64,000 bases of DNA from Centroscyllium fabricii (Eukaryota), in NCBI GenBank assembly GCA_051313645.2, contig JBNRSN020000008.1:82088001-82152000 (forward strand). Direction: 5' to 3'. Numbering within the stretch: position 1 is the stretch's first letter; each line of letters begins with the position of its first letter. Both the position numbers and the translations under genes were made by a program. Positions 1 to 58,988 of the stretch are shown here, one piece after another. The notes below the pieces were generated by a model that made no database searches, was not told where the DNA came from, and saw only the letters and a program-made list of their open reading frames with translations.

Positions 1-3000
1 CCTGGTCGGTAAAGAATGTCATACTCGTAAGTCGAGAGTTCGATCCGCCACCGCAGGATCTTATCATTCTTGATCTTACCCTTCTGTTTATTATTAAACA
101 TAAACGCCACCGACCGTTGGTCGGTGAGAACGGTAAAATGCTTACCGGCCAGGTAATGACGCCAGTAGCGCACGGCCTCCACGATGGCCTGGGCCTCCTT
201 TTCCACTGCTGAGTGGCGAGTTTCGGGTCCCTGTAGGGTGCGGGAGAAAAACGCTACGGGCCTGCCTGCCTGATTCAGGGTGGCAGCAAGGGCGAAGTCC
301 GAAGCGTCGCTCTCCACCTGGAAGGGAATGGATTCATCAACAGCGAGCATGGTCGCCTTGATGATGTCTTCCTTTATCCGGGCGAATGCCGTTTGGGCTT
401 CTACCGAAAGGGGGAAAACGGCAGCCTTGAGGAGTGGTCTAGCCTTGTCCGTGAACTGTGGGACCCATTGTGCGTAATAGGAGAAAAATCCTAGGCATCT
501 CCTCAAGGCTTTAGGTTTGTGAGGTAGGGGCAGTTCTTGAAGGGGTTGCATACGCTGTGGGTCGGGGCCGAGGACCCCGTTCTCCTCCACGTATCCGAGG
601 ATGGCGAGCCGGTCTGTATTAAATACGCTTTTGTCTTTGTTATACGTGAGGTCCAGCTTATCCGCCGTGTCGAGAAATTTGGCCAGATTGGCATCGTGGT
701 CCTGCTGGTCGTGGCCGCAGATGGTCACGTCCAGGTAGGGGAAGGTGGCCTGCAACTTGTTCTGGTCAACCATGCGGTCCATCTCCCGCTGGAACACTGA
801 CACTCCGTTGGTCACGCCGAAGGGGACCCGGAGGAAGTGGTAGAGCCGACCGTTCGCCTCGAAGGCGGTGTAGGGGCGGTCGGCTTTCCGGATCGGGAGT
901 TGGTGATACGCTGACTTACGGTCGATCGTGGAGAACACCTTATACTGGGCGATCTGATTGACCATTTCCAAGATGCAGGGGAGGGGGTAGGCGACGAGCC
1001 CGGTGTAGCGGTTGATGGTCTGGCTGTAATCGATCACCAGCCGTTGTTTCTCGCCAGACTTTACCACTACAACCTGGGCGCGCCAGGGGCTGGTGCTGGC
1101 TTCAATTATCCCCTCCTTCAGCATACGCCCGACCTCCGACCTGATAAACGTGCGATCCCCCACACTGTACCGCCGACTCTTGGTAGCAATAGGTTTGCAC
1201 TTGGGGTCGAGGTTGGCGAGCAGTGAGGGGGGGTCGATTTTCAGGGTGGAGAGGCCGCAGGCCGGGCTCCGCTTTGGGAAGGGACTGTCCCGGCTACTGA
1301 CGGTGAGGGGGGGCAAGGTCCTGCCGAACTCCATTGTCACGCTCTTGAGGTGGCACTGGAAATCCAGACCTAGTAAGGCTGGGGCACACAACTGCTGGAG
1401 GGTGTACAATTTAAAATTACGGTACACGCACCCCTTGACTGTGAGCGTGACGGAGCAGTAGCCGGTGACGTCCGCGGTGTGGGACTTTGAAGCAAGGGAG
1501 ACTTGGTAGTTTGTGGGCATGATCTGCAGTCCGCAGCGCTGCACTGTATCAGGGTGCACAAAGCTCTCCGTGCTTCCAGTGTCAAATAGGCAATTAGTAG
1601 TATGGCCGTTTATTTTGATGGGCATTATTGAGTTAGACAGGGTGTGTGGCCTGTCCTGGTCCACTATGGGTATGGCTGAAGCCGACGTGTGCTTTTGTGT
1701 GTGTGTGTCCCCTGCTGGTTGGGGCTGCACACAAAATGGCGGCGCCCCTGGCTCGCACATGGTGGGGCCCTGGAGACAAAATGGCGGCGCCCCTGGCTCG
1801 CACATGGTGGGGCCCTGGAGACAAAATGGCGGCGCCGAGGGGTCGCACATGGCGGGCCGCTGGGGACCAGATGGCGGCACTGGGGGGTCGCACATGGTGG
1901 GCCGCTGGGGGTGAGATGGCGGCGCCCGTGGTTCGCACGCGGCTGACCGCTGTGAGCGCGCTGGCGGCGCCAGTGGTTCGCACGCAGCGGACTGCGGTGA
2001 CTGGGTTGGCGCCGCCCGTGGTTCGCACGCAGCGGGCCGCGGTGGCTGGGTTGGCGGTGCCCGTGGTTCGCACGCAGCGAGCCGCGGTGGTCGGGTTGGC
2101 GGTGCCCGTGATTTGCACGCAGCCGGCTGCATTGGGTCTGCTGCTGGCGTTGGGGGGTCGCGCTTGGCCAGCCTTTGCCGCCTCGGGGTGGGAGATGGGG
2201 GCGCTTTCCTTCTACCCCCGGACCGTCGCTGGATCGCGCTGCTATTGCAGCTTACCTGAGGTCTGTCGGAGCTTTCACAGGCTGCGCTGTTGTACCTGGA
2301 GTTGGGCGCTGTTGGTGCTGATCTGCAAGCCTTTGCGTAATGTCCCTTCTTGGCGCACCTCTCACAGGTCGCGGTCCTTGCTGGGCATCTCACTCTCGGG
2401 TGCAGTCCCTGGCTGCAGAAGTAGCAGCGTTTGTCTTTTGTGGCTGTCGCAGCCATCGTGGGGGTCTCGACCCGTTGTGGTGCTGCCCAGGCCTGGGTCC
2501 GTTGTGGCGCGGCCCACATGTCGTAGACCTGCAGGTTTGTGCCGCTGTACGCTTGTAGTTTGTTGCGTGCTCCTTCCACGGAGTTAGCTGTAGCAATCGC
2601 ATCTTCGAGAGACAAAGTGTCTTTTTCGAGCAGCCGCTGGCGGGCTTCCACGCACCTTAGGCCAGTTACATACGCGTCTCGGACGAGGAGGTTCGCCTCC
2701 TCTCCTGCTGTCTGGGCTTGGCAGCCACAGACCCGTACCAGGGCCTGGCGCGCTTGCTCAAATTGTTCATTAGTCTCACCCGGTAGTTGTGGTCTGGTCG
2801 CGAGCACATGTCTGGCGTAGACCGAATGGACCGGACGCTTGTAGCATTTCCTCAGCTTTTCCACTGCCCCTGGGTAGGGTTTGGCGTCTCGGATGAGGGA
2901 GAATACTCAGCTGGAGATCCTGGACAGGAGAACCTGTAGCTTGTTCCCTTCGGTTGTAGCCTTGGCGGCGTCCATGTAGGCCTCCAGGAGACCGAACCAG

Positions 3001-3382
3001 TGTTCGAACGTGGTGGCGGCGGCAGGGTCTTGTGGACTGATATCCAGCTTTTCTGGCTTTACTGCGCCGCTCTCCATTTTAAAAACTTTAAGTGATTAAA
3101 ATTGACGTATCGTCAATATCTCAGAGTAAAAGACTCAACGAGTAGTTACCGTAACTATAGGCTTTTAATCACTTACTTAGGAGCTACCCTCCGAACGAAC
3201 ATCTGAGCAGGAATGAGGGAGCCTCAGTCAGTCTCCACCTATAAAGGCCTCACCTGGGGGAGGAGTTAGAGGTGTGGCTGACCTGGCTCCCGACAGTGTT
3301 ACAGGGCTGTGTATCACACATACACAGCCAATTATTGGCAACAAGAATACAGTGGTACAACATAACATTATGGGTTACCACA
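1..3382 (-). mobile_element. Ty3/Gypsy LTR retrotransposon, family B copy B0 (5' part; runs off the window start), disrupted gag-pol
   Basis: Minus-strand gag start ATG at 3077 (MESGAVKPEKLDISPQDP), then protease, RT and RNase H segments homologous to the elements at 27366 and 43099; stops and frameshifts present. Confidence 0.93.
3103..3382 (-). repeat. 5' LTR of element B0 (280 bp)
   Basis: Reads TGTGGTAACC...GATACGTCA on the minus strand like other B LTRs; poly(A) hexamer is the ATTAAA variant. Confidence 0.9.
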
Positions 3383-7569: not shown

Positions 7570-7598
7570 CATCAGCGAACATCCCCACTTCTGACCTT

Positions 7599-7963
7599 AT
7601 AGAAACTAGGAGCAGGAGTAGGCCATTCGGCCCTTCGAGCCTGCTCCGCCATTCAATGAGATCATGGCTGATCATCCAAACCCAGCACCCCACCCCTACC
7701 CTCTCCCCATATCCCTATCGAGCCTGCATCAACACATCCCCGTAACCCCACATATTCAATCCCCCTAACACTAAGGGTCAATTTATCATGGCCAATCAAC
7801 CTAACCCGCACATCTTTGGACTGTGGGTGGAAACCAGAGCACCCGGAGGAAACCCACGCAGACACGGGGAGAATGTGCAAACTCCACACAGATAGTACCC
7901 GAGGCTGGATTTGAACCCGGGTCTCCAGTGCTGTGAGACAACAGTGCTAACCACGTGCCACCC
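7599..7963 (-). mobile_element. V-SINE (HE1-like)
   Basis: tRNA-like head, V domain GTGTGGAGTTTGCACATTCTCCCCGTGTCTGCGTGGGTTTCC and CR1-derived tail on the minus strand. Confidence 0.85.
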
Positions 7964-13165: not shown

Positions 13166-13467
13166 CGACGTATCGTCAATAGCCTTAATAAAACTAAAGA
13201 CGCGTAGTTACCTTAACTAGAGGCTTTTATTAGCTTACAAAGGAGCTACGCTCCGATCGAACATCAGGTACAGAATGAATGGGGGCAGGTCAGTCCCCAC
13301 CTATAAGGCACTCACCTGAGGGGAGGAGTTAGAGGTGTGGCTGACCTGACCCCGCGACAGTGTCGCAATACAAGGTAGTGTATTATGCACCCGGCCGCTA
13401 TACATGCAATACAATATTGGCAACAATATTGAGGTGGTAAAAGAGTACATATATAACGGTTACCACA
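13166..13467 (-). mobile_element. Solo LTR of family B (closest to the B2 LTRs), no TSD
   Basis: Reverse complement of the 43099-43411 LTR type; flanks CTGCG and AACAA do not match. Confidence 0.88.
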
Positions 13468-14273
13468 AACAACCCCCTGCGTAAAGAAATGTCTCCTATT
13501 CTCTTTCCTCACTCAGTGACAGTTTTAAATTGATGACTCCTCATCACCTCCCCAAGCAGAGGAAATGGTCTTCCCTATTAATACCTTTGATAGTTTTAGA
13601 AAGCTCCATTATACAGGTACAGGTTGTGCACCGAAAATCTGTGACCCGAAACGCCGGCAGCTTAAGTCTGCCGGCACAAATTGCCCCGACTGCACTGCGC
13701 ATGCGCACGATGGCAGCCGCCATTGCGGCTTCGGCGAATGATCTGTGCATGCGCCGCTGAACGGCGAGCGCATGCACAGATCATTCAAAACGGCTGCCGG
13801 GAGTTTTGAATGATCTGCGCATACGTCGCTGGACGACGAGCGCATGCGCAGATCATTCAATACGGCCGCCGGTTATTTTCTCGACAGCTGAGCCCCTTGA
13901 CTGAGGCGACAGTCACCCGGCAGCAGCTGTCAGCCCGAGTCCGGCTCGGCGGCAGCAGCAACCCCAAAGGCGATGGAGAGGGAAGGCGGACCTACTGGGC
14001 CCGACCCGCGCCCGCACAACCCTCCTTCTCCCCTTGCAAGACCGGCCTTTCATTGCTGCCCGACAGCCCTAAAAGACAAACGGAACGCCACAAAAGCCTG
14101 AGCCCCTCAAAAAACTTTGCGGCGGCCATTATTGGATGATCTGCGCATGCGCTCGCCAGCCATTCCCAATGTTGTGCGCATGTGCGCGGCCATTTTTAAT
14201 GGTGCGCGCATGCGCATTGTCCAAATTCATTCTCCCGTTTTTTTCACTTTCCCGGCATGGGCCTGGTCCCGCC

Positions 14274-17200
14274 TGTGGTAAACCACTGTTTTCCTGTATA
14301 TATCCACCCCGTTATGTATATATCTGTATCTCTGTAATCGTACTATTCTCCATGTTGTACATAGCCTATTGTGTGCGATTACCTGGACATGCCCATGCTG
14401 GCTCCACCCGCGACTCCTCCCTCCCAGGAGGAGGTATATAAGCGGCCGTCTCCCATCCCCCGGCCATTCCTGGGGACGGTCGACTAGCTGGTGCATGTCC
14501 ACCATTTAGCGAATAAAAGCCGTATTGTTTCACCTTTCTAACTACTCGTCCACGAGGTCGTTATTTCGGTCACAATTTTATTCGCTAAATTTTGAAGATG
14601 GACGCAATGCTCAAGCTAGCAACGTTTGAATTGGATCCCCGGACACCAGGCGCATCAAACACATTCTCGCACTGGTATGACTGCTTCGATGCATACATGA
14701 GAGCGAACGCAGGGGTCGTCAGGACCGAAGAGGACAAACGGCGACTCCTCAACGCCCGCGTGGGCCCTCAGGTGTACTCCATGATCGTGGACGCATCATC
14801 ATACTTGGATGCTATCAGGATCCTCAAGGCGGAGTACAACCGGGCACCCAATATCGTCCACGCCAGACACATTCTAGCCACCAGAAAGCAGCAACCCGGT
14901 GAGTCCAGCGTGAAATTCCTAAGAGCGCTGAGAGTGCTATCACGGGCCTGTGACTGCAGAGCGCAATCGGCCCAGGTCCATGTGAACAGTCTAATCAGAG
15001 ACGCATATGTTACAGGCCTCAGGTCGGACTATATCAGACAAAGGCTGTTAGAACAGAACGGCCTTGACCTGCAGGCAACAGCGGACCTGGGCAACGCGCT
15101 GGATGTGGCCTCGTTAAACTTATCGTCATACTCTGGCAACTATACGGGCCCAGCCCCGACAACTTGGACGGCGGAAGAAATGATCGCAGCCGCCCACGCT
15201 AAGACGGCAAAATGTTACTTCTGCGGGCAGTCTCAGCATCCGAGACGCAGCTGCCCGGCAAAAGACGCGGCCTGCTCGAAATGCGGAAAGAAGGGACATT
15301 ACGCTAAAGTCTGTAAGGCGACTGCAGCCCCTAAACCGAAACCGGGCAGTGCCACGTGTGGAACATGGGGGCAGCCATATTGGACTCAGCCATCCCCCAC
15401 TCAGCACACCGCGTGGCAGCAGACGCCATATTGGACCCAGCCACCCCCTCTGCAGTACACCGCATGGCGGCAGCCATCTTGGGACCAGGCCCCGGAGGAC
15501 TTCTCGCCGGATCAAGAGGAATCGTCTGATCCAATATTGGCATCGGTGACCCTGGACCAGAACAAGGCTCAATCACTCGGGAAATCGATGATGCCGGTGG
15601 GAGTGAACGGACAGGACGTTGAGTGCCTTTTCGACAGCGGGAGCACGGTGAGTTTTGTTCATCCTGAAACAGTAAGGCGCCTCTCCCTTAAGGTTATGCC
15701 AGCGAGCCAAAAGATCTCAATGGCTTCCAAATCGGAATCTGAGGACGTCTCCGGGCGTTGCGCAGTGGCTCTAATGGTGCGGGGCGTGCACTTTAGTAAC
15801 TTTAACTTTTTCGTGCTGCCGCAGCTCTGCGCTCCATTGCTATTGGGTCTGGACTTCCAGTGCCATCTCCAAAGCGTTACCATGGCGTACGGTGGGCCCC
15901 TTCCCCCGCTCATGGTCAGCAACCGGCGCTCGGCGCAGCACCCCCAGCGCGCTACCTGTGGCTTCTCGACCCTTAAGGTCGCCCCTCCCTCGCTCTTTGC
16001 CAACCTCACCCCAGACTGCAAGCCCATCGCCACCAAGAGTAGGCGCTACAGTGCTGGGGACATGGACTTTATCAAGTCCGAGGTGCAGCGCCTCCTGAAG
16101 GAGGGGGTTATCGAGGCCAGTAATAGCCCCTGGAGGGCGCAGGTAGTGGTGGTGAAGACCGGAGCTAAGAACCGGATGGTAGTGGACTATAGTCAGACCA
16201 TCAATCAGTTCACCCAGTTAGACGCATACCCCCTCCCCCGGATAGCGGACATGGTGAATCAGATTGCGCAGTTCCGGGTGTTCTCCACCATAGATCTGAA
16301 GTCCGCGTATCACCAGCTCCCCATTCGCCCAGAGGACCATCTCTATACTGCCTTCGAGGCTGACGGTCGCCTCTACCACTTCCTCAGGGTCCCGTTTGGC
16401 GTCACGAATGGGGTCTCGGTCTTCCAAAGGGAGATAGACCGAATGGTCGATCAGTACGGGCTGCGAGCCACTTTACCGTACCTCGATAATGTGACCATCT
16501 GCGGCCACGATCAGCAGGACCATGACGCCAACCTCCAGAAATTTCTCCACACCGCCAAAACACTCAATCTGACGTATAACACTGAAAAATGTGTGTTCAG
16601 TACCACCCGCCTCGCCATCCTCGGCAGTGTTGTGGAGAATGGGGTCATCGGTCCCGACCCGGACCGCATGCGCCCCCTCCTGGAGCTCCCCCTCCCCCAC
16701 TCCCCCAAGGCCCTTAAACGGTGCTTGGGTTTCTTTGCCTATTATGCCCAGTGGGTCCCCAACTATGCGGACAAAGCTCGCCCACTACTTAAATCAACCT
16801 CATTCCCCCTGTCAGCAGATGCCCGCGCGGCATTCTGCGGCATTAAGGACGACATTGCAAAGGCAACGATGCACGCCGTGGACGAGTCCGTCCCATTCCA
16901 GGTAGAGAGCGATGCATCGGACTTTGCCCTGGCCGCCACCCTTAACCAGGCGGGCAGACCCGTGGCCTTCTTCTCACGTACCCTCCAGGGCCCCGAAACC
17001 CGTCACTCCTCAGTTGAGAAGGAGGCCCAGGCCATCGTTGAAGCAGTGCGTCACTGGGAGCACTACCTGGCCGGCAAGCGATTTACCCTGCTGACTGACC
17101 AACGCTCAGTCGCTTTTATGTTCAACAACAAAGAGCGGGGTAAAATCAAGAACGACAAGATATTAAGGTGGAGAATTGAGCTCTCCGTGTTCAATTACGA

Positions 17201-18887
17201 TATCTTGTACCGGCCCGGGAAATTTAACGAACCCCCAGACGCCCTTTCCCGCGGTACCTGTGCCAGTGCACAGACAGACCATCTCCAAACCCTACACAAT
17301 GACCTCTGCCATCCGGGGGTCACCAGGTTGGTTCACTTCGTGAAGTCCCGCAACCTCCCCATCTCCATCGAGGAGGTCAAGACCATGACCAGCAACTGCC
17401 AGGTCTGTGCGGAGTGCAAGCTGCACTTCTATCGGCCAGACCGGGCGCACATGATCAAGGCCACCCGCCCCTTTGAACAACTCAGCGTCGACTTCAAAGG
17501 CCCCCTTCCTTCCACCAACAGGAACGTGTACTTCCTCAATGTCATTGACGAGTACTCCCGCTTCCCTTTTGCCATCCCCTGCCCGGACATGACCTCAGCC
17601 ACTGTAATCAAAGCCCTCCACAGCATCTTCTCTCTGTTCGGCTACCCCAGCTACATCCATAGCGACCGGGGGGCCTCTTATGAGTGACGAGCTGTGTCAG
17701 TTCCTGCTAGCCAAAGGCATCGCTACTAGCAGGACTACCAGCTATAACCCCCGGGGGAACGGACAGGTAGAGAGGGAGAACGCCACTGTCTGGAAGGCCA
17801 TCCTATTAGCCCTACGGTCTAAAGGCCTCCCAGTCTCCCGCTGGCAGGACGTCCTCCCTGAAGTGCTCCACTCCATCCGGTCCCTCCTGTGTATGGCCAC
17901 TAATGCCACCCCTCACGAGCGACTTTTTGCCTTCCCCAGGAAGTCGGCTTCCGGGACCTCGCTACCATCGTGGCTGCTATCCCCGGGACCAGTCCTACTA
18001 CGGAAGCATGTGAGGGGCCACAAGGCAGATCCCCTGGTCGAACGGGTCCACCTCCTGCACGCCAACCCCCAGTACGCTTACGTGGCGTACCCCGACGGGA
18101 GGGAGGACACCGTGTCCATCAAGGACCTGGCGCCAGCGGGATCCCCCAAAACCAGCCCCGCCCAGCAGCCCGCGCCCCCAAGGCGGCCAACCACCCCATC
18201 TGGGCCACCGGCGCCAAGGTACGCTCCCCGGCACGAGAACCCAGCACCCCGGTACGTCCACCCGGCACCTGTGGGCAGCACGGCATGGCCTCCAGCATGG
18301 TTCCACAGTACACGCCCCCTAGAGTCAGACGACGAGGGAGAGAGCGCGCCACCTACTGTCACCGCAAGGGCACCAACGAGAAATCAACCGACACTATCTA
18401 CCATCGCTCGCCAACCGGCATCATCACCAACGGTGCAACCTCAACCGGCCACTCCACGACCGCGGACACCATCAGCGGTGCGACGCTCAACCAGGATCAC
18501 CAGGCCGCCTGAGCGACTTAATTTGTAATTTTAAAAGAACTGTCGCGTTCACCCCGCCGGACTTTTGTTTTTAAAGAAGGGGTGAATGTGGTAAACCACT
18601 GTTTTCCTGTATATATCCACCCCGTTATGTATATATCTGTATCTCTGTAATCGTACTATTCTCCATGTTGTACATAGCCTATTGTGTGCGATTACCTGGA
18701 CATGCCCATGCTGGCTCCACCCGCGACTCCTCCCTCCCAGGAGGAGGTATATAAGCGGCTGTCTCCCATCCCCCGGCCATTCCTGGGGACGGTCGACTAG
18801 CTGGTGCATGTCCACCAATTAGCGAATAAAAGTCGTATTGTTTCACCCTTCTAACTACTCGTCCATGAGGTCGTTATTTCGGTCACA
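14274..18887 (+). mobile_element. Full-length Ty3/Gypsy LTR retrotransposon A1 (4614 bp), TSD CCGCC
   Basis: 301-bp LTRs 14274-14574 and 18587-18887 (about 5 differences by eye), TG...CA, PPT AAAGAAGGGGTGAA, domain order Gag-PR-RT-RH-IN. Confidence 0.97.
14598..18528 (+). pseudogene. A1 gag-pol, single frameshift (2-bp deletion near 17679)
   Basis: Two CCHC knuckles, protease LFDSGS, RT IDLKSAYHQ and YLDN, RNase H ESDASD..DALSR, integrase HHCC and D,D(35)E; A2 has TCTTTCATG where A1 has TCTTATG. Confidence 0.92.
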
Positions 18888-27365: not shown

Positions 27366-30300
27366 TGTGGTAACCGTTATATAGTGTTTATTACCACTGT
27401 AATAGTGAAGCACAATATCAACTAGCATGTATAGCGGCTGGGTGCACTATACACTGTTTTGTATTGCGATACTGTCACGGGGTCAGGTCAGCCACACCTC
27501 TAACTCCTCCCCTCAGGTGAGTGCCTTATAGGTGGGGTCTGACCTGCCCCCAACCATTCTGTACCTGATGTTCGACCGGAGCGTAGCTCCTTTGTAAAGC
27601 TAATAAAAGCCTATAGTTAAGGTAACTACTCGTCTTTAGTATTATTGTATTATTGACGATACGTCAATTTTATTAGCTTTAAAATTTAAAATGGAGAGCG
27701 GCGTTGTGAAACCCGAAAAGCTGGACGTCAGTCCACAGGACCCAGCTGCCGCCAATACATTTGAACACTGGTTCAGTCTCGTTGAGGCCTACATGGAGGC
27801 CGCCAAGGCGACAACCGACAGGAACAAACTGCACGTTCTCACATCGAGGATCTCCAGCCAGGTATACTCCTTCATCCGCGACGCTAAGACGTACACTGAA
27901 GCCGTGGAAAAACTGAAGGCATGCTACGTGCGCCCGGTCCACTCGGTCTACGCCAGACATGTGCTGGCGACCAGACAACAACTAGTTGGTGAGTCCAACG
28001 AACAGTACCTGTTGGTGCTCCAAGCCCTTGTCCGGGCCTGTGACTGCCAGACACGGACGGCACAGGAGGAGGCGAATCTCCTCATCCGGGACGCTTATGT
28101 AACGGGGATCAGGTCCGCCCAGGCCCGCCAGCGGCTGCTGGAGAAAGAGACACTAACACTGGAGGAGGCGATCTCCCTCTCCAACGCTGTGGATGGCGCG
28201 CGCCGCAGATTAGAGGCGTACAGCGGCCAAAGCCCGCACGCCACCTTCGACTCCTGGGCGCCCCCACAACGGCAGTGGCAGCTGCGAAGACGTCGGAGGA
28301 TAAAAGGTGCTATTTCTGCAGCCAGGGACTACACCCGCGAGCAAAATGCCCCGCGAGGACCGCGACCTGCGAGAAGTGTAAGAAAGGGACACAACAGCGC
28401 GGCCTGCGAGAGCTCCAACGCTGGCCCTTGGCCTCAGGTAAGCTGCAGTTGCAGCGCGACCCAGCGACGGTCCGGGGGTAGGGTACAAGCGCCCCCGTCT
28501 CCCACCCTGATACGGCAGAGGCCGGCCGCGCATATGGCAAGCCAAACTCGGCCACGGCCGGCCATGTGCGACCCCCCAACGCTGGCATCTCGCCCAGCAC
28601 GGCCCGCTGCGTGCGAATCATGGGCGCCGCCAACCCAGCCACCGCGGCCTGCTGCGTATGAACCACGGGCACCGCCACCGCGTCCCGCCGCGTGCAAATC
28701 ACGGGCGCCGCCATCTTGTCCGCAGCGACCAGCCATGTGCGACTCCCCGGCGCCACCATCTTGTCTTCAGCGGTCAGCCATGTGTGACTCCCCGGCGCCG
28801 CCATCTTGTCCACAGCGGTCGGCCATGTGCGAATCACGGGCGCCGCCATCTTGTGCACGGCCCCGGCTAGCGGAGGGCTCCCACACAAGCACACACACTT
28901 CGGCCTCAGCCACGGTCGACCAGGCTAGGCCTCACACCCTATCAAATTCCATGATGGGGATTAAAGTCAACGGCCACGCCACTAACTGCCTGTTCGACAC
29001 CGGAAGCACAGAGAGCTTCATCCACCCCGACACAGTGCGGCGCTACGGACTGCAGACCCTGCCCACGCGCTACCAAATCTCCCTTGCTTCACAGTCCCAC
29101 ACAACGGACGTCACCGGCTACTGCTCCGTCACGCTCACAGTCAGGGACTGCGTGTACCGTAATTTTAAATTGTACATACTCCAGCAGTTGTGCGCCCCAG
29201 TCTTACTGGGACTGGATTTCCAGTGCCACCTGAAGAGCGTGACAATGGAGTTCGGTGGGACCCTGGCCCCACTCACCATCAGTAGCCGGGACAATCCCTT
29301 CCTAAAGCAGAGCCCGACTTGTGGCCTTTCCACCCTGAAAGTCGACCCCCCCTCGCTGTTCGCCAACCTCGACCCAAACTGCAAACCCATTGCTACTAAG
29401 AGTCGGCGTTACAGTGCAGGGGATCGGACATTTATCAGGTCGGAGGTCGGGCGTATGGTGCAGGAGGGGATAATTGAAGCGAGCACCAGCCCCTGGCGGG
29501 CCCAGGTCGTAGTGGTTAAGACTGGCGAGAAACTGCGGATGGTGATCGACTACAGCCAGACCATTAACCGCTACACCGGGCTCGACGCCTACCCCCTTCC
29601 CCGCATCTCGGAAATGGTTAACCAGATCGCCCAGTACAAGGTGTTCTCCACAATCGACCTTAAGTCGGGGTATCACCAACTCCCGATCCGAAAAGCCGAC
29701 CGCCTGTACACCGCCTTCGAGGCGAACGGTCGGCTCTACCACTTCCTCCGGGTCCCCTTCGGCGTGACCAACGGGGTGTCGGTATTCCAGAGGGAGATGG
29801 ACCGCATGGTTGACCAGAACGGGTTGTAGGCCACTTTCCCCTACCTGGACAACGTGACCATCTGCGGCCATGACCAGCAGGACCACGATGCCAATCTGGC
29901 CAAATTCCTCCACACGGCGAAACGGCTCGATCTCACGTACAATAAAGATAAGTGCGTCTTTAGTACAGATCGGCTCGCCATCCTCGGATACGTGGTGGAA
30001 AACGGGGTCCTCGGCCCCGACCCACAGCGTATGCGTCCCTTACAGGAACTGCCCCCATCTCACAACCCCAAAGCCCTGAAGAGATGTCTGGGATTTTTCT
30101 CTTATTACGCGCAATGGGTTCCCCAGTTCGCGGATAAGGCCAGACCGCTCCTCAAGGCTGCCGTCTTCCCCCTCTCGGTAGAAGCCCACACGGCGTTCGC
30201 CCGGATCAAGGAAGATATTATCAAGGCGACCATGCACGCCGTTGATGAGTCCATCCCTTTCCAGGTGGAGAGTGATGCTTCGGACTTTGCCCTTGCCGCC

Positions 30301-32237
30301 ACCCTGAATCAGGCAGGCAGGCCCGTAGCGTTTTTCTCCTGCACCCTACAGGGACCCGAAACTCACCACTCTGCAGTGGAAAAGGATGCCCAGGCCATCG
30401 TGGAGACCGTGCGCTACTGGCGTCATTACCTGGCCAGTAAGCGTTTTACCCTGCTCACTGACCAACGGTCGGTCGCATTTATGTTTAACAATAAACAAAA
30501 GGGTAAAATTAATAATGATAAGATCCTGCGGTGGCGGATCGAGCTCTCGACTTACGAGTACGACATTCTTTACCGACCAGGCAAACTCAATGAACCTCCG
30601 GACGCACTGTCCAGGGGAACGTGCGCCAGTGCCCAGCTAGACCGGCTGAAGGAACTCCACGATCGCCTCTGCCACCCGGGTATCACCAGACTTGCCCATT
30701 TCGATAAGTCCCGTAGCCTCCCCTACTCCATCACGGAGATCAAGGCTATGACCCGAGAGTGCCCTGTTTGCGCCGAGTGCAAACCCCAATTTTACAGGCC
30801 AGACACGGCACACCTCATTAAGGCCACCCGCCCCTTTGAACGTCTAAGCGTGGACTTCAAAGGCCCCATCCCCTCCACCGACCGCAACTCGTACTTCCTC
30901 ACGGTCGTAGACGAGTTCTCCCGCTTCCCCTTCACCTTCCCCTGCCCAGATATGACAAGCGCAACGGTGATCAAACACTTCACCACGCTGTTCGCCATTT
31001 TCGGTCTCCCCAGCTACATCCATAGCGACCGGGGGTCGTCGTTCATGAGCGACGAACTGCGTCAGTTTCTGCTTCAGAAAGGGGTTGCCTCAAGCAGAAC
31101 GACCAGTTACAACCCCTGGGGGAACGGCCAGGTAGAAAGGGAGAACGGGATCATCTGGAAGGCGGTCAGCCTGGCCCTGAAGTCCAGAGGCCTTCCAGTG
31201 TCCCGTTGGCAGGCAGTCCTCCCAGATGCGCTGCACTCCATCCGCTCTCTGCTGTGTACGGCTACCAACGCCACACCTCATGAATTGCTCTGTTCCTTCC
31301 CCAGGAAGTCGACTTCGGGGACAGCACTCCCACCATGGCTGATGATGCCGGGGCCGGTCTTACTTAGAAAGCATGTCCGCGGCCATAAGACCGACCCCCT
31401 GGTGGAGAAGGTGCAGCTGCTGCACGCCAACCCACAGTACGCATACGTGCAGTTCCCGGATGGGCGCGAGGACACAGTTTCCATCAGGGACCTAGTGCCC
31501 GCCGGGAGCACCGCAGCAGAGCCCCTGGTCGAGCCTCAGCCCGACCAGCCACCACCTACCGAATACTGGCCTACACACCAACCACAACCCACCGGATTTT
31601 GGCCTATGCACACACACACACCGGAGCCCCCGCCACTACCAGCCGAGGACCAAGAACCGGACGCCGCACCGTAGCCACAGCAGCAGCCGGAGGGCCCACA
31701 GGCACAGCAGCAGCCGGAGGGCTCGGCCCCACCGACACTACTGGCACCAGCGCCGCCGACACTACAGGCACCAGCGCTGCTGACACTACCGGCACCAGCG
31801 CCGCCAACACTGCAGGCACCAGCGCTGCTAACAGAGACCCGGCGGTCCTCAAGACAGACGCGACCGCCGGAGAGACTTATTATGAACTGCTCTGTCCATT
31901 CACCCCGCCGGACTTAATTTTCAAAGAAGTGGTGAATGTGGTAACCGTTATATAGTGTTTATTACCACTGTAATAGTGAAGCACAATATCAACCAGCATG
32001 TATAGCGGCTGGGTGCACTATACACTGTTTTGTATTGCGACACTGTCGTGGGGTCAGGTCAGCCACACCTCTAACTCCTCCCCTCAGGTGAGTGCCTTAT
32101 AGGTGGGGTCTGACCTGCCCCCATTCATTCTGTACCTGATGTTCGACCGGAGCGTAGCTCCTTTGTAAAGCTAATAAAAACCTATAGTTAAGGTAACTAC
32201 TCGTCTTTAGTATTATTGTATTATTGACGATACGTCA
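27366..32237 (+). mobile_element. Full-length Ty3/Gypsy LTR retrotransposon B1 (4872 bp), TSD CCTTA/CCTTG
   Basis: 301-bp LTRs 27366-27666 and 31937-32237 (about 7 differences); gag ATG 27691; in-frame TAG at 29827 and 31672; lesions around the zinc knuckles. Confidence 0.96.
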
Positions 32238-34563: not shown

Positions 34564-34966
34564 ACATACAAATATAGAAGATAGGAGCAGGAGTAGGCCA
34601 TTCGGCCCTTCGAGCCTGCTCCGCCATTCAATGAGATCATGGCTGATCATCCAAACCCAGTACCCTGTCACTGCCTTGTCCCCATATCGCTCGATCCCTA
34701 TCGAGCCTGCCCCGACACATATCCCACCCTATCCCTGTAACCCCACATATTCAATCCCCCTAACACTAAGGGTCAATTTATCATGGCCAATCAACCTAAC
34801 CCGCACATCTTTGGACTGTAGGAGGAAACTGGAGCACCCGGAGGAAACCCACGCAGACACGGGGAGAATGTGCAAACTCCACACAGATAGTACCTGAGGC
34901 TGGATTTGAACCCGGGTCTCTGGTGCTGTAAGGCAACAGTGCTAACCACTATGCCACCGTGCCGCC
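34564..34966 (-). mobile_element. V-SINE (HE1-like), full length
   Basis: Same head, V domain and CR1 tail as the other copies; begins about 55 bp after the exon donor. Confidence 0.85.
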
Positions 34967-35529
34967 TCTACATGAGTAGATTTGAATGGTGTATTGTGTA
35001 CTTTATGGGGGAGAAATTCAGTTGTTTGTGCCACTCGTTGGCACCCTAGGAGGGCGCTAATGGGGGCGCAAAGCAATTAGCGCCCGGACGCGGCGAGTTT
35101 AGAGCCGCTCGGCAAATTCACTAGGCGCTCGGCGGCGGCGTTAAACATTAGCGCGCGATCTCCTGCTCACGCAGATTTTGACGTCATTCGAGAGTGCAAC
35201 ACCCTTGGGGAGCCCTGAACCGGAAATTGAGTGGTGCACCCCTCCTTTCCGCCCCGCGCTACCAATGACAGGTAGACTGGAACACATCCCAATCACTGTG
35301 GGACTGGGGGGGGGGTTGCTATTTAAAGGGGGTCTCTTCCTGGATTTGGTGTGGTAGCCATTTTTGCACCACTCGGTCGGAGCGAGAGAGGGAGAGTTGC
35401 AGAGAGACAGAGAGAGAAAGAGAGACTTCTCGTTTGACTCAATACTTTGGGCCTCTGCTCATAACTTTTCAGGTACTGTTGGTTGTTGGCCTTCACTGCT
35501 TTGCTTGCCTCGAGACTATGGGAGCTGCA

Positions 35530-37949: not shown

Positions 37950-40900
37950 TTATTTCACTCCTTTAAAACTCCCTTGATTAACTGCTTTGTTAACCTGTCC
38001 TGCCACCTTCAAAGATTTGTGCACAAGCACCCGAAGGTGTCCCTCTTCTTGCACCCCCTTTAAAATTAACATTTAGTGTGTATTGTCTCTCCTTATTCTT
38101 CCTACCAAAATGTATCACCTCTCTCTTTTCTGCATTGAATTTCATCTGCCATGTATCCACCCTGTGGTAAACCACTCTTCTATGTATTCTAAGTATATCT
38201 ATCCACTCTGTCTTGTACATATATGTATGTTTGTAATCGTACTATTCACCATGTTGTATCATAGTTCATTGTACACGATTACCTGGACATGCCCATGCTG
38301 GCTCCGCCTGCGACTCCTCCCTCCCTGGGCCAGGTACATAAGCGGCCGTCTCCCATCTCCCTGCCATTACTGGGGACGGTCGACTAGCTGGTGCATGTCC
38401 ACCTTTAGTGAATAAAAGCCGAATTGTTTTACCCTCTTAACTACTCGTCCATGAGGTCGTTATTTCGGTCACAATTTTATTCACTAAATTTGAAGATGGA
38501 CGCAATGCTCAAACCAGCAACGTTCAAGCTGGACCCCCGGACACCAGGTGCATCAAATACCTTTTCGCACTGGTTTGACTGTTTTGATGCGTTCATGAAG
38601 GCGAACGCAGCGGTCGTCAGGACCGAAGAAGACAAACGGCGGCTCCTCAACGCCCGGGTGGGCCCTCAGGTATACTCCATGATCGTAGATGCATCATCGT
38701 ACTCGGATGCAATCGGGATCCTCAAGGCGGAGTACAACCGGGTACCCAACATCGTCCACGCCAGACACCTCCTGGCTACCAGAAAACAGCAACCCGGTGA
38801 GTCCAGCGTGGAATTCCTACGCGCGCTGAGACTAATTTCCCGGGCCTGTGACTGTAAACAGCAATCGGCCAAGGTCCACGCAGACAATCTAATCAGGGAC
38901 GCATATGTGACGGGCCTCAGGTCGGACTATATTAGACAAAGGCTGTTAGAGCAGAATAGCCTTGACCTGCAGGCAACAGCGGACCTGGGCAACGCGCTTG
39001 ATGCGGCATCACTGAATTTATCTTCATATTCTGGAAACTACGCGGGCCCGGCCCGGACAAATTGGACATCGCCGGCGCCACGGCCGGCGGAAGAAATGAC
39101 TGCGGCCGCTCGCTCTAAGACGGCCAAATGTTACTTCTGCGGGCAGCCTCAGCATCCGAGACGGAGCTGCCCGGCAAGAGATGCGACCTGCTCGAAATGC
39201 GGCAAAAAGGGACACTATGCCAAAGTCTGCAGAGCAACTGCAGCACCGCAACCGAAACCGGGCAGCGCCGCGTGTGGGACGTGGGGGCAGCCATCTTGGT
39301 CACAGCCATCCTCAACACAGCCCACGCGTGGCAGCAGACGCCATCTTGGTCTCAGCCACTCCCTCCGCAGTACACCACATGGCGGCAGCCATCTTGGGAC
39401 CAGGCCCCAGACGACTACTCTACGGATCAAGACGACTCGACCGATCCGGTACTAGCTTCAGTCACCCTGGACCAAAACAAGACACAACCACTTGGGAAGT
39501 CGATGATGACGGTGGAAGTGAACGGACAAGACTTTGAGTGCCTCTTCGACAGCGGGAGCACGGTGAGTTTTGTCCACCCAGAAACAGTAAGGCGCCTCTC
39601 CCTTAAGGTTATGCCAGCGAGCCAAAAGATAGCCATGGCATCAAAATCAGAATCCGCGGACGTCTCCGGACATTGCGCGGTGGCTCTAACGGTACGGGGC
39701 GTGCACTTTAATAATTTTAAATTTTTCGTGCTGCCGCAGCTCTGCGCTCCATTATTATTGGGCCTGGACTTCCAGTGCCATCTCCAAAGCGTTACCATGG
39801 CATACGGTGGGCCCCTTCCCCCGCTCACGGTCTGCAACCGGCGCTCCTCGCAGCATCCACAGCACGCTACCTGTGGCCTCGCGACCCTTAAGGTTGCCCC
39901 TCCCTCGCTCTTTGCTAACCTCACCCGGAATGCAAGCCCGTCGCCACCAAAAGTAGGCGCTGCAGTACCGGGGACATGGACTTCATCAAGTCCGAGGTGA
40001 AGCGCCTCCTGAGGGAGGGGGTTATCGAGGCCAGTAACAGCCCCTGGAGGGCGCAGGTAGTGGTGGTGAAGACCGGAGCTAAGAACCGGATGGTAGTGGA
40101 CTATAGCCTGACCATTACCCGGTTCACCCAGTTGGACGCGTACCCCCTTCCCCGGATAGCGGACATGGTAAATCAGATCGCGCAGTTTCGGGTCTTCTCG
40201 ACCATCGATCTGAAGTCCGCGTATCACCAGCTCCCCATTCGCGCAGAGGACCGTCTCTATACTGCCTTCGAGGCTGACGGTTGCCTCTATCACTTCCTCA
40301 GGGTCCCGTTTGGCGTCACGAATGGGGTCTCAGTCTTCCAAAGGGAGATGGACCGAATGGTCGATCAGTACGGGCTGCGAGCCACTTTCCCGTATCTCGA
40401 TAATGTAACCATCTGCAGCCACGATCAGCAGGACCATGACGCCAACCTCCAGAAATTTCTCCACACCGCCAAAACACTCAACCTGACCTATAACACTGAA
40501 AAATGTGTGTTCAGGACCACCCGCCTCGCCATCCTCGGCAGTGTTGTGGAGAATGGGGTCATCGTTCCCGACCCGGACCGCATGCGCCCCCTCATGGAGC
40601 TCCCCCTCCCCCACTCCCTCAAGGCCCTCAAAAGGTGCCTGGGGTTCTTCGCCTATTATGCCCAGTGGGTCCCCTACGATACGGACAAATCTCGCCCACT
40701 ACTCAAATCAACCTCATTCCACCTGTCAGCAGATGCCCGCACGGCGTTCTGCGGCATTAAGGACGACATTGCGAAGGCAACGATGCATGCTTTGGATGAG
40801 TCCGTCCCGTTCCAGGTCGAGAGCAATGCATCGGACTTCGCCCTGGCCGCCACCCTTAACCAGGCGGGCAGACCCGTGGCCTTCTTCTCACGTACCCTCC

Positions 40901-43020
40901 AGGGCCCCGGGACCCGTCACTCCTCAGTTGAGAAGGAGGCCCAGGCCATTGTTGAAGCAGTGCGTCACTGGAAGCACTACCTGGCCGGCAAGCGATTTAC
41001 CCTGCTGACTGACCAACGCTCAGTCGCTTTTATGTTCAACAACAAAGAGCGGGGTAAAATCAAGAACGACAAGATATTAAGGTGGAGAATTGAGCTCTCC
41101 GCTTTCAATTATGATATCTTGTACCGGCCCGGGAAACTCAACGAACCCCCAGACGCCCTATCCTGCGGTACATGTGCCAGCGCACAAGTAGACCGTCTCC
41201 AAACCCTGCACAACGACCACTGCCACCCGGGGGTCACCAGGTTGTTTCACTTTGTGAAGTCCCGCAACCTTCCCTACTCCATCGAGGAGGTCAAGACCAT
41301 GACCAGCAAGTGCCAGGTCTGTGCGGAGTGAAAGCCGCACTTTTTTCGGCCAGACCGGGCGCATCTGATCAAGGCCACCCGCCCCTTTGAATGACTCGAC
41401 GTCGATTTTAAGGGGCCCCTTCCCTCGGCCAACAGGAACGTGTACTTCCTTACCGTCATTGATGAGTACTCCCGCTTCCCCTTTGCCATCCCCTGCCCGG
41501 ACATGACCTCTGCCACTGTCATCAAGGCCCTCCACAGTATTTTCTCCCTGTTCGGCTACCCCAGCTACATCCATAGCGACCGGGGGACCTCTTTCATGAG
41601 TGACGAGCTGCGTCAGTTCCTGCTAGCCAAAGGCATCGCTACTAGCAGGACTACCAGCTATAACCCCCGGGGGAATGGACAGGTAGAGAGGGAGAATGCC
41701 ATGGTCTGGAAGGCCATCCTGTTAGCCCTATGGTCTAAAGGCCTCCCAGTCTCCCGCTGGCAGGACGTCCTCCCCGAAGCGCTCCACTCCATCCGGTCAC
41801 TCCTTTGTACGGCCACTAATGCCACCCCTCACGAGCGACTTTTTGCCTTCCCCAGGAAGTCGGCTTCCGGGACCTCGCTGCCATCGTGGCTATCATCCCC
41901 GGGACCAGTCCTACTCCGGAAGCACGTGAGGGGCCACAAGGCAGACCCCCTGGTCGAACGGGTCCACCTCCTGCACGCCAATCCCCAGTACGCCTACGTG
42001 GCGTACCCCGACGGGAGGGAGGACACCGTGTCCATCGAGGACCTGGCACCAGCGGGGGCCCCCAAAACCCCCCCCGCCCAGCAGCCCGCACCCCCGCGCC
42101 CGCCAGCCACCCCACCCGGGCCACCGGCACCAAGGTACGCTCCCCGGCATGAGAATCAGGCACCACGGTACGTCCGCCCGGCACCTGTAGGCAGCACGGC
42201 ATGGCCTCCGGCATGGCTCCATAGTGCACGCCCCCTAGAGTCAGACGACGACGGGGAGAGCGCGCCGCCAACTGTCACCGCAAGGGCACCGACGAGGTAC
42301 CAACCGACTCAATCAGCTATCGTACGGCCACCGATATCCTCACCAGCGGTGCGATCAACACAACCGGCTACTTCACGTCCGCCAACACCACCAGCGGTGC
42401 GCTTTTCCACCAGGCTTACCAGGCCGCCTGAAAGACTAAATCTATAAATTAAAAGAACAGTCGCATTCACCCCGCCGGACTTTCGTTTTAAAGAAGGGGT
42501 GAATGTGGTAAACCACTCTTCTATGTATTATAAGTATATCTATCCACTCTGTCTTGTACATATATGTATGGTTGTAATCGTACTATTCACCATGTTGTAT
42601 CATAGTTCATTGTATACGATTACCTGGATATGCCCATGCTGGCTCCGCCTGCGACTCCTCCCTCCCGGGGCCAGGTACATAAGTGGCCGTCTCCCATCCC
42701 CCTGCCATTACTGGGGACGGTCGACTAGCTGGTGCATGTCCACCTTTAGTGAATAAAAGCTGAATTGTTTTACCCTCTTAACTACTCGTCCACGAGGTCG
42801 TTATTTCGGTCACACACCCACTCTACCAGCTTGTTTCTCTCCCCTTGAAAACTATTACTATCTTCCTCACTGTTTACTACACTTCCAAGTTTCGTGTCAT
42901 CTGCAAACTTCAAAATTGTGTCCTGTACCCCCAAGTCCAAGTCATTAATGTATATCCAAAACAGCAGTGGTCCTAGTACTGAACCCTGGAGAACGCCACT
43001 GTATACCTCCCTCCAGTCAT
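37950..43020 (-). mobile_element. CR1 RT fragment split by element A2 (pieces about 37950-38162 and 42815-43020)
   Basis: GVLQGSVLGPLLFWIYINDLD...KFADDTKL on one side, WQMKFNAEK..VIHFGRKN on the other. Confidence 0.8.
38163..42814 (+). mobile_element. Full-length Ty3/Gypsy LTR retrotransposon A2 (4652 bp), TSD CACCC
   Basis: 311-bp LTRs 38163-38473 and 42504-42814 (about 9 differences); gag-pol 38496-42447 with frameshifts near 39320 and 39925 and TGA stops at 41329 and 41392. Confidence 0.96.
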
Positions 43021-43021: not shown

Positions 43022-46000
43022 AGAAGATAGAAACATAGAAGATAGGAGCAGGAGTAGGCCATTCGGCCCTTCGAGCCTGCTCCGCCATTCAATGAGATTG
43101 TGGTAACCGTTATATATGTACTCTTTTACCACCTCAATATTGTTGCCAATATTGCATTGCATGTATAGCGGCCGGGTACATAATATACTGTAATACACTG
43201 CCTTGTATTGCGACACTGTCGCGGGGTCAGGTCAGCCACACCTCTAACTCCTCCCCTCAGGTGAGTGCCTTATAGGTGGGGACTGACCTGCCCCCATTCA
43301 TTCTGTACCTGATGTTCGATCGGAGCGTAGCTCCTTTTGTAAGCTAATAAAAGCCTCTAGTTAAGGTAACTACTCGTCTTTGTTTTTATTAAGACTATTG
43401 ACGATACGTCAATTTTATTAGCTTAAAAATTTGAAATGGAGAGCGGCACTGTAAAACCCGAGAAGCTGGACATTAGTCCACAGGACCCAGCTGCCGCCAA
43501 AACCTTCGAACACTGGTTCGGCCTCGTTGAGGCCTACATGGACGCCGCCAAGGCTACAACGGATGCGAACAAATTACATGTTCTCCGGTCCAGGATCTCC
43601 AGCCGAGTCTTCTCCTACATCCGCGACGCTACGACCTACACCGCAGCCGTGGAGAAATTGAAGAAGTGCTACGAGCGCCCGGTACACTCTGTCTACGCCA
43701 GACATGTGCTCACGACCAGACCACAGCTATCAAGTGAGTCTAACGAGCAATTCCTGCTGGCGCTCCAAGCTCTCGTCTGGGCCTGTGACTGCCAACCACG
43801 GACGGCACAAGAGGAGGCAAACCTTCTCGTCCGGGACGCCTATGTAACCGGACTCAAGTCCGCAGAGGCCCGCCAGCGGCTGCTGGAAAAGGACACATTG
43901 ACTTTAGACGAGGCGATCTCCGTCTCCAACTCTGTGGAGGGCGCACGCCGCAAACTACAGGCTTACGGCGGCCCAAACCCACATGCTACTTTCGACTCCT
44001 GGGCAACCCCACAACGGGTCGAGACCCCCATGACGGCAGCGGCAGCTGCGAAGACGCCGGCGGGGAAGAGATGCTACTTCTGCGGACAGGGTCTACACCC
44101 ATGGGCGAAATGCCCCGCGAGGACCGCGACCTGCGAGAGGTGCTCAAAAAAGTGACACTACGCCAAGGCCTGCAAATCGGCCCCGGCGTCCAGCTCCAGG
44201 TACAACAGCGCGGCCTGCGAAAGCTCCAGCACGACGCCCTTGGCCTCAGGTAAGCGGCAGCTGCAGCGCGATTCAGCGACGGTCTGGGGGTAGAGTACAA
44301 GTGCCCCCGTCCCCCACCCTGATGCCCAGGGCACGCCAAACTCAGCCACGACCGGCTAGGTGCGACCCCCCAATGCCGGCATCCCGCCCAGCCCGCTGCG
44401 TGCGAATCACGGGCACCACCAACCCAACCACTGCGGCTCGCTGCATGCGAATCACGGGCACCGCCAACCCAGCCACCGTGGCTCGCTGCGTGCGAACCAC
44501 GGGCACCACCACCGCGACCCGCCACGTGCGACCCCCCGGCGCCGCCATCTTGTCTCCAGTGGCCAGGCACGTGCGACTCCCCAGCGCCGCCATCTTGTCT
44601 TCAGCGGCCAGCCATGTGCGAACCACGGGCGCCGCCATCTTGTGCACGGCCCCGGCCAACGGGGGGCCCACACACACACACTTCGGCCTCAGCCACCCTG
44701 AAGGTCGATCAGGCTAGGCCGCACACCCTATCGAACTCAATGATGGGGATTCTAGTTAACGGCCACGCCACTAACTGCCTGTTCGACACCGGAAGCACAG
44801 AGAGCTTCATCCACCCCGATACAGTGCAGCGCTACGGACTGCAGATCCTGCCCACGCGCTACCAAGTCTCCCTTGCTTCACAGTCCCACACCACGGACGT
44901 CACCGGCTACTGCCCCGTCACGCTCACAGTTAAGGGCTGTGTGTACCGTAATTTTAAATTGTACATACTCAGACAGATGTGCTCCCCAGTCTTACTCGGA
45001 CTGGATTTCCAGTGCCACCTTAAGAGCGTGACAATGGAGTTCGGCGGGACCCTGCCCCCCCCTCACCGAAAGCGGGGCCTGACCTGCGGCCTTTCCACCC
45101 TGAAAGTCGACCCCCCCTCACTGTTCGCCAACCTCGACCCCAAATGCAAGCCCATTGTTACCAAAAGTCGGCGTTACAGTGCAGGGGATCGGACATTTAT
45201 CAGGTCGGAGGTCGGGCGTATGCTGAAGGAGGGAATAATTGAAGCTAGCACCAGCCCCTGGCGGGCCCAGGTCGTAGTGGTTAAGACTGGCGAGAAACAG
45301 CAGATGGTGATCGACTACAGCCAGACCATTAACCGCTACACCGGGCTCGACGCCTACCCCCTTCCCCGCATCTCGGAAATGGTTAACCAGATCGCCCAGT
45401 ACAAGGTGTTCTCCACAATCGACCTTAAGTCGGCGTATCACCAACTCCCGATCCGGAAAGCCGACCGCCCGTACACCGCCTTCGAGGCGAACGGTCGGCT
45501 CTACCACTTCCTCCGGGTCCCCTTCGGCATGACCAACGGAGTGTCGGTATTCCAGAGGGAGATGGACCGCATGGTTGACCAGAATGGGTTGCAGGCCACC
45601 TTCCCCCACCTGGACAACGTGACCATCTGCGGCCATGACCAGCAGGACCACGATGCCAATCTGGCCAAATTCCTCCACACGGCGAAACGGCTTGATCTCA
45701 CGTACAATAAAGATAAGTGCGTCTTTAGTACAGATCGGCTCGCCATCCTCGGATACATGGTGGGAAAAAGGGGTCCTCGGCCCCGACCCACAGCGTATGC
45801 GCCCCCTGCAACAACTGCCCCTTCCTCACAAACCCAAGGCCCTGAAAAGATGTCTGGGATTTTTCTCTTATTACGCGCAACGGGTTCCCCAGTTCGCGGA
45901 TAAGGCCAGACCGCCCCTTAAGGCTACCGTCTTCCCCCTCTCAGTAGAAGCCCAAATGGCATTCGCCCGGATCAAGGAAGATATTATCAAGGCGACCATG

Positions 46001-48334: not shown

Positions 48335-49124
48335 TATTGCACATTATTTTAAAAAGTTTCATTTGTAATACATAAAGTACCCAGTTTTATGTATCTAGTA
48401 TTCTGTACATCATGAATTAAGTTATCTTGAAAAGAGAGATTAAGAACTTCATGCAGCTTTTAGGCAATTTCAATTCCTCACACCACAATTTTGACAGTGG
48501 ATTATTGTTCATGATTTAATTCTCAGAAAGGTAACATATTACATCGAAAGTGTCTTTGAGCAAATTTGAATAGATTTCAATGAGAATGTTTACTACTTAT
48601 TGTTGATTATATTAGGCAATAAAATTACAGTAATATGGTTCACTGCATATTAGCACAAAAAGAAATGCTGGAAACATGGAGCAGTTTAGGCTTAAGGTAA
48701 AAAATGTCTTTTGTTTGGAGAACAAAATTAAAATGAGACCCTTGAATTTATAAACTCAAAGAAACTACAGAGAAAAGAAAGTTCTACCTTTCAGTGCTGA
48801 AGGACTGTTGAAATTGCTGTTCATAATGGATTATCTGTGCTCATCATGATAGCTCCAGAATGAACTCTGATCTGCTGTCTGTTAAACACATGCCAAATAT
48901 TTCCAAATACTTCCACATTGCCTTCTTTCTTCAATACTTGGCATTACAGACCGAAGCTGAAGTTCGGGAAGTGTGTCCAACATTGGCAATATTTTCTGTA
49001 AGAAGCAAGGAATATTAAGTAACAGATTGCAGCTACAGCAAGAATTTGAACACATAGACAGATCAATTTAAAATATCTCAACTGTAGCTTTCCTGTTGAA
49101 TTGCATTTACAGTTATCAATTATT

Positions 49125-58613: not shown

Positions 58614-58988
58614 GCGAGCATACGGTTCATCAACCGCGTGGGCGAAGAATCGCCTAACATCGGGAGTTCCAGTAGTTGTCGGGCCCGAACGGCCTCTGGT
58701 AGGTCGTGGGCCTGCAGTAAACGTTTAAGAGCGGCGTAACTGTCGGCAGCTGGCGGGTCTCGAAGCAGGTCGATGATGTCGGCAGCCACATGACTCGGTA
58801 GGGCCGCAACGGTGAGAAAGTATTGATCCTCATCGTCCGCGATGTGTTTAATCCTGAACTGCGCCTCTATTATCGAACCAGGCTGTTGCCTGGTTTTCCC
58901 AAAAGCCTGGGAGGCTTGCATTCAACGGCCGTTCTTGTTGCCTGGCCGCGGAGCGCACGTTCTGGGCAGCTGTTTCTTCATCTGCCAT

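Follow-up and report, generated by a model that had tools for sequence, protein, structure and literature searches.

The third catalytic aspartate of reverse transcriptase (RT), the last residue of the YxDD motif, is regarded as indispensable to the replication of retroelements, and YxDN is usually taken to mark a dead enzyme. The Ty1 mutant D211N polymerizes with a kpol 223-fold lower, prefers Mn and does not transpose, and RNase H suppressors rescue it to 5-10% (PMC2148107); the Ty3 mutant D214N is still active, though less processive, and the change abolishes transposition (PMC5371799). A defect of HIV-1 D186N, on which the preliminary description of this locus had drawn, is met indirectly in a third report (PMC554778). 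That description knew the substitution only from such mutants, but natural YxDN has already been published for nematode BEL/Pao elements. YVDN is found in Cer7-Cer12 of C. elegans, with enzyme activity called undetermined (PMC554778), and in the Atlas element of the hookworm Ancylostoma, whose LTRs are identical (PMC9094657); these natural cases left the question of activity open. A further point of comparison is Tf1/Tf2 of Schizosaccharomyces pombe, in the Tf1/sushi group, in which the primer-binding site complements the element's own LTR RNA, there is no tRNA site, RNase H is intact and Tf1 primes with its first 11 RNA bases (PMC7175516).

The stretch analyzed here, a 64-kb window of the Centroscyllium fabricii genome, holds five copies of a Ty3/Gypsy (Metaviridae) lineage in two families, A and B. 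One of them, A1, measures 4,614 bp and is flanked by the 5-bp duplication CCGCC (14269-14273, and again after the 3' LTR). Its LTRs are 301 bp long with TG...CA ends (5' LTR 14274-14574, plus strand, TATA at 14435; 3' LTR 18587-18887) and differ at 5 positions (98.3% identity), and a polypurine tract occupies 18574-18586. A single gag-pol frame (14598-17687, plus strand) runs in Gypsy order from two CCHC knuckles (from 15213) through protease (DSG near 15633), RT and RNase H to the start of the integrase, where it is interrupted within the core; the remainder continues in the next frame (17608-18528), with GQVERE at 17761 and a proline-rich tail. The RT motif-A aspartate lies at 16293-16295, in IDLKSAY, and motif C at 16479-16490 reads TACCTCGATAAT, or YLDN, with Asp at position 3 and Asn in place of the third catalytic Asp. 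RNase H (16905-17249) has its acidic residues in ESDAS, EKE, TDQ and PDALS.

A2 (38163-42814, plus strand; LTRs 97.1% identical; duplication CACCC) belongs to A1's family, with 89% identity, and has YLDN at 40393-40404 (plus strand; TATCTCGATAAT). Family B shares about 75% nucleotide identity with A across pol. Its member B1 (27366-32237, plus strand; LTRs 97.7% identical) carries YLDN at 29842-29853 (plus strand; TACCTGGACAAC) with a stop just upstream of the motif; B2 (43099-47999, plus strand; LTRs 98.4% identical; duplication GAGAT) has HLDN at 45607-45618 (plus strand; CACCTGGACAAC); and B0 (1-3382, minus strand, truncated by the window edge, 5' LTR at about 3382-3103) reads YLD-V, the fourth codon having been lost. 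These motifs are as the preliminary description gave them, as is the ordinary YLDD (55625-55614, minus strand) of an unrelated Gypsy element at 53009-59319 (minus strand), whose RT is only 31% identical and which has a tRNA-type TGG primer site; the label CsRN1-like for this element is taken from that description, and we use the element solely as an internal comparison. The further claim that the catalytic residues are retained holds in part. The motif-A aspartate is kept in all five copies (within IDRKSAY in B0) and A1 has every RNase H and integrase residue, but its integrase Glu sits in a different frame past the break near 17,680, and some RNase H and integrase motifs of A2, B1 and B2 were missed by the search patterns used. 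None of the five copies has an intact open reading frame.

Several repeats accompany these elements. Family B contains an in-frame 45-bp (15-residue) tandem repeat between zinc knuckles and protease (1680-1994, 28512-28861 and 44346-44650), where family A has a different short repeat. A solo family B LTR (13167-13468, minus strand) lies about 800 bp upstream of A1, and an interspersed repeat of about 380 bp occurs four times (7596-7962, 34573-34970, 48000-48336 and 50520-50907), one copy abutting the 3' end of B2.

Assignment to Ty3/Gypsy is consistent across features: TG...CA LTRs, 5-bp duplications in A1, A2 and B2, and a Pfam order in pol of protease, RT, RNase H and integrase. The best PDB match of the RT is that of Ty3 (4OL8, E 1e-46), against whose YLDD the YLDN motif aligns, followed by caulimovirus (3e-27) and gammaretrovirus (4e-18) enzymes. 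The nematode Belpaoviridae resemble this lineage in that there, too, Asp has naturally given way to Asn at this motif position, and in an LTR retroelement that seems intact. Those elements have three CCHC knuckles and a DD(45-53)E integrase spacing (PMC554778); membership was rejected, with two knuckles here and about 35 codons from the second integrase Asp to the Glu (17664 to about 17770). The nematode elements belong to another superfamily, which implies an independent origin of the substitution here. The present lineage further differs in being without env, in hosts that span many phyla and in toggling between Asp and Asn, and genomic counts here test for helpers directly. Troyka, considered along with Kuafuorterviruses, was also set aside, since its CG...CG termini and 3-bp duplication, as published (PMC12440569), do not fit the TG...CA ends and 5-bp duplication found here.

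A chromodomain on the integrase is typical of the Tf1/sushi group. In contrast, a Pfam search of the integrase tail of A1 (P0002) gave no chromodomain match, and the A1 integrase is without the GPY/F tripeptide. The Cigr-1 clade shows every one of the features compared here, with two CCHC knuckles, an ILG-type protease, integrase after RNase H, a lost GPY/F and neither chromodomain nor env (GyDB; PMC2774666 supplement 3); this feature code is also that of Osvaldo (PMC2774666) and hence is not unique to Cigr-1. The clade is also recorded in molluscs and annelids in two surveys (PMC6238403, PMC8556966), and neither Cigr-1 nor a named Ciona sequence is among the homologs listed. The string "YLDN" does not occur in the supplements of PMC8556966 (11 of 14 files), PMC6238403 (4 of 5 files) or PMC2774666. 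We found no account of YxDN or of an LTR-leader stem in Gypsy elements in the literature within reach, beyond which lie Repbase Reports, the Cigr-1 paper, subscription papers and some supplements, where the lineage may already be described. Repbase presumably names a self-priming Gypsy group.

The substitution is not confined to the window. Searched over the 7.2-Gb genome, the exact pattern P-Y-L-D-N-[VI]-T-I-C-G gives 214,286 matches and the reversed control pattern none; one-residue variants give 296 for YLDD (0.14%), and 464 for YLDS and 822 for YLGN, the controls that likewise differ by a single A-to-G change. Because these two decay controls both outnumber YLDD, the YLDD copies stand at or below the mutation background. 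Asn is present in more than 99% of the lineage's genomic copies, and YLDN rather than the canonical three-aspartate motif is its norm. Provided that the majority of these YLDN matches belong to nearly full-length copies, the lineage would account for something like a tenth of the genome. Copy-specific decay of the motif, which the preliminary description had argued against, was ruled out by these matches together with the YxDN homologs described below.

Could the Asn enzyme be dead or weak, and the elements be mobilized in trans by a YxDD enzyme? Candidate sources are present, namely the 296 YLDD copies and an unrelated YLDD family, whose CsRN1-type pattern has 58,438 matches (a pattern of different strictness, making comparison with 214,286 rough). 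However, YLDD falls below the control mutations, and the first 30 of the 296 YLDD loci include no young group: they are scattered across A-like, B-like and other subfamilies, their pairwise similarity is at most 96.9% over 1 kb, and a single one is open over its own 3 kb. A sister-family YxDD pattern without the proline has 4 matches. The search for helpers that the preliminary description envisaged thus returned 296 YLDD copies and no amplified helper family among the exact-pattern counts, the first 30 YLDD loci and the non-proline sister pattern, with the proviso that exact patterns would miss any helper with other flanking residues.

The same counts bear on the idea that the codon is Asn while the working protein has Asp, through A-to-I RNA editing or protein deamidation. 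This would take a single A-to-G change from AAY to GAY, and Asn and Asp are the only residues tolerated at the site. Edited RNA would, however, return to DNA as YLDD, and we rule out editing because YLDD is seen at just 0.14%, below background. Deamidation is slow for an Asn that precedes Val or Ile, as it does in the pattern searched, and we regard the whole idea as very improbable.

Homologs extend the substitution well beyond this genome: the database search that the preliminary description suggested shows YxDN in Ty3/Gypsy relatives from multiple animal phyla. The nearest named proteins, at 75-84% identity, come from Scyliorhinus, Hypanus, Narcine and Mobula. Among the best 120 homologs, 93 have YxDN, 26 YxDD and one YLNK; a search of shorter proteins gave 86, 29 and 5 other among its best 120. 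In a library clustered at 50%, where the motif is covered in 147 of 149 new matches, Asn and Asp occur at 18 to 20 (2 other) at identities of at least 50% and at 11 to 30 (1 other) between 38 and 50%, and all 65 matches below 38% have xxDD. The YxDN relatives are found in cartilaginous fishes, cnidarians, molluscs, crustaceans and flatworms (named hosts include sharks and rays, Actinostola, Oculina, Plakobranchus, Petrolisthes, Dicrocoelium and Spirometra). YxDD is found in sister lineages from nematodes (Trichuris and Trichinella), spiders (Trichonephila and Oedothorax) and a sea cucumber (Apostichopus). Scans of viral contigs found no relatives. Two homologs (P0016 and P0032) are labelled bacterial integrases, and genome bins in the prokaryote collection (L125-L131, G001-G004) carry many animal-type LTR retrotransposons, some with LTR pairs; these bins most likely contain host DNA. 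A Hypanus protein annotated as a "PSTPIP1a isoform" (P0366) contains the clade's protease and RT, probably through gene-model fusion or exonization.

We placed 188 clade and 14 outgroup rows on a FastTree tree with the motif column removed and rows of fewer than 300 aligned residues excluded. The fourth motif residue is N in 116 clade rows, D in 69 and something else in 3; with 185 of 188 rows confined to these two residues, the site is constrained, not neutral. The tree requires 18 changes of state, 11 of which cannot be avoided given well-supported branches; shuffled states need 56 on average. It comes with long-branch warnings, and some of the Asp rows are each represented by one sequence and may reflect mutation after insertion. 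Basal branches are nearly all Asp, and some Asp groups are nested within Asn groups, a branch pattern that suggests both gains of Asn and reversions. The other two RT aspartates are conserved in 114 and 116 of the 116 Asn rows, and these and the three RNase H residues are kept in both states.

Selection on the protein is evident from 32 copies in which the RT-RNase H frame is open, 31 of them in this genome and one an invertebrate-type relative. Median pairwise dN/dS is 0.25 at dS below 0.1 (39 pairs), 0.088 at 0.1-0.3 (197 pairs), 0.066 at 0.3-0.7 (70 pairs) and 0.054 above 1.5 (129 pairs), with one pair at 0.7-1.5 and 58 saturated pairs excluded; choosing open frames disfavors stops but does not bias toward low dN between subfamilies. 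With dN/dS at about 0.05-0.09, RT-RNase H evolves under strong purifying selection. Mobilization in trans fits this poorly, because a passenger RT would not hold dN/dS near 0.05 at saturated synonymous distances, nor would it keep its other two aspartates in nearly every Asn row, and we consider it the least probable of the alternatives raised here.

The claim that the lineage was recently mobile also stands. Across 20 long-frame copies the median LTR identity is 98.6% and the maximum 99.67% (two copies were mis-paired by the script), and at least 4 bp of target-site duplication is found in 14 of them; for 16 of 20 copies picked regardless of frame from the start of contig C1, the median is 97.5%. 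Most pairs fall between 95 and 99.7%, and none of the 36 is fully identical. By LTR identity, the YLDN lineage thus appears young and recently amplified.

A second feature of the lineage concerns priming. Next to the inner end of the 5' LTR, each of the five window copies has 13-15 nt that form the reverse complement of a stretch of the LTR itself, one with the polyadenylation signal at its end. The A1 arm (ATTTAGCGAATAAAA, 14504-14518, plus strand), a predicted self-primer, contains AATAAA and finds its perfect 15-nt complement at the primer-binding-site position (14576-14590, plus strand), within a leader that totals 23 nt before the gag ATG and has no TGG site, unlike that of the CsRN1-like neighbor. 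The window has no tRNA gene. Arm and leader read GCGAATAAAA/TTTTATTCGC in A1, GTGAATAAAA/TTTTATTCAC in A2, which has a compensatory change compared with A1, and GCTAATAAAA/TTTTATTAGC in B1; the two sequences vary in concert between copies, and three invertebrate-type families have different sequences in the same geometry. Over stem positions 7-13 of 33 distinct pairs, 218 of 231 cells are paired, whereas 2,000 shuffles average 156 and never exceed 179, with the qualification that the pairs were chosen by a pattern fixing only the A/T-rich first positions and that the shuffles ignore kinship; positions 8 and 9 show several Watson-Crick types. RNA folding pairs the A1 arm, and folding z-scores for the whole region are modest (-1.7 to -2.8). 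Together, a primer-binding site that pairs with the element's own polyadenylation-signal region suggests Tf1-like self-priming, of which this lineage is a probable variant. Tf1 primes from the very start of its RNA, whereas the arm here includes the polyadenylation signal and is predicted to lie about 40 nt inside, judging by the TATA at 14435 and by CCATTCC near 14464, which resembles an initiator.

That signal raises the alternative that the stem only hides the polyadenylation signal of the 5' LTR while priming proceeds otherwise. In HIV-1, a hairpin occludes the polyadenylation signal. Here the arm, which lies some way into the predicted transcript, always holds AATAAA or ATTAAA, and its partner is present next to the 5' LTR alone. 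Yet the partner lies precisely where a primer-binding site belongs, separated from the LTR by one base, and occupies most of the short leader, there is no tRNA-type TGG site, and the 3' end of the arm is geometrically directed into U5. We therefore find an exclusive role in hiding the signal unlikely; hiding the signal and priming are compatible.

The preliminary description had gone further and raised the possibility of a specific co-adaptation, linking Asn to RNase H and to the unusual priming. The partial rescue of Ty1 D211N by RNase H suppressors speaks for such a link, and several columns are associated with Asn in raw counts, the foremost of them being an RNase H column at position 786 of P0001 (seen in 97 of the 116 Asn rows and in 13 of the 69 Asp rows). 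When 11 independent pairs were compared, however, no column among those listed tracked Asn (median sign-test p 0.5-1, at low power). The YxDD sisters share the protein background, in which the state flips repeatedly: 55 columns separate the whole clade, Asn and Asp members alike, from the outgroups, among them DYSQTIN replacing DYRxLN in the fingers, RAQ replacing (A/S)SP, and a basic KIKNDK insert in RNase H. The insert (17142-17159 in A1) is conserved in 80-92% of clade rows, is missing from 11 of 14 outgroup rows and is a candidate for RNA:RNA cleavage in self-priming.

The proposed coupling of Asn to priming has a similarly mixed standing. Clearly self-pairing leaders were recovered only from YxDN families, but a decayed basal-branch element (L156:687-5864) that reads YLED and is nearest to YxDD proteins also self-pairs, with a perfect 9-nt LTR-leader complement in the same place, and two YLDD copies carry an arm-like 3' LTR segment, their 5' ends being missing. 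The decayed element's pair reads GAGGGAAAT/ATTTCCCTC, and its RNase H insert is AVKNAK. Only truncated or decayed copies, none with an intact 5' end, were recovered for YxDD members. On balance, co-adaptation specific to Asn seems improbable, a little more so than a stem confined to hiding the signal.

What remains of the earlier proposal is its core, that this lineage transposes with a two-aspartate RT, which is favored by lineage-wide Asn, recent amplification, lack of a detected helper and selection; Asn-specific co-adaptation is the part without support. Of the refuting conditions that the preliminary description named, those that sequence can address, YLDD in the consensus or in close intact copies and a pol free of purifying selection, did not hold. 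The Ty1 and Ty3 mutants have the same change at the same residue and polymerases active in vitro, and the Ty3 enzyme is the nearest solved structure; in contrast to those mutants, which do not transpose, this lineage has reached more than 200,000 copies. Because the Ty1 mutant loses so much of its kpol and neither yeast mutant transposes, a compensating background would be needed, for which the 55 clade-wide columns supply candidates. Since YxDN is the normal motif of a lineage whose pol is under purifying selection, two aspartates very likely suffice for the enzyme, in what would be a permissive background common to Asn and Asp members. We conclude with considerable confidence, on comparative sequence evidence, that this Ty3/Gypsy lineage polymerizes with two aspartates and drives its own transposition, probably self-primed.

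Mechanistically, the two metals would be held by the motif-A Asp and the first Asp of YxDN. The fourth motif residue would need to provide a side-chain carbonyl rather than a charge, because Asn or Asp alone is tolerated there. The clade-wide RT and RNase H background, common to Asn and Asp members, may absorb the loss that blocks transposition of the Ty1 and Ty3 mutants. For priming, the LTR segment that has AAUAAAA at its end would pair, in the folded RNA, with the 15 nt adjoining the 5' LTR on its inner side. A cut after this segment, likely by RNase H as in Tf1, would place a 3' end at one base from U5, and the stem would also mask the 5' LTR polyadenylation signal. A bolder version, which we put forward tentatively and at somewhat less than even chances, is that in a pan-metazoan Gypsy lineage remodelling of the fingers and RNase H (DYSQTIN, RAQ, KIKNDK) made the third Asp optional, that a dual-role hairpin silences the 5' polyadenylation signal and then, after cleavage, primes in a manner not described before, and that the Asn form outcompeted the canonical one to fill about a tenth of this genome.

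Judged from sequence comparison, YxDN in Gypsy is a new and independent instance of a substitution already known in BEL/Pao, with stronger evolutionary evidence: the copy number, the purifying selection and the mutation-background controls argue strongly that the Asn enzyme supports transposition. Elements with YxDN should not be annotated as inactive, and because nature supplies sister enzymes about 60% identical, some with Asn and some with Asp, the residue's role can be tested directly without engineering. Our findings also suggest that self-priming occurs in an animal Gypsy lineage that does not belong to the chromoviruses, and the third catalytic aspartate, long an "essential" residue, appears to be optional in a widespread animal lineage.
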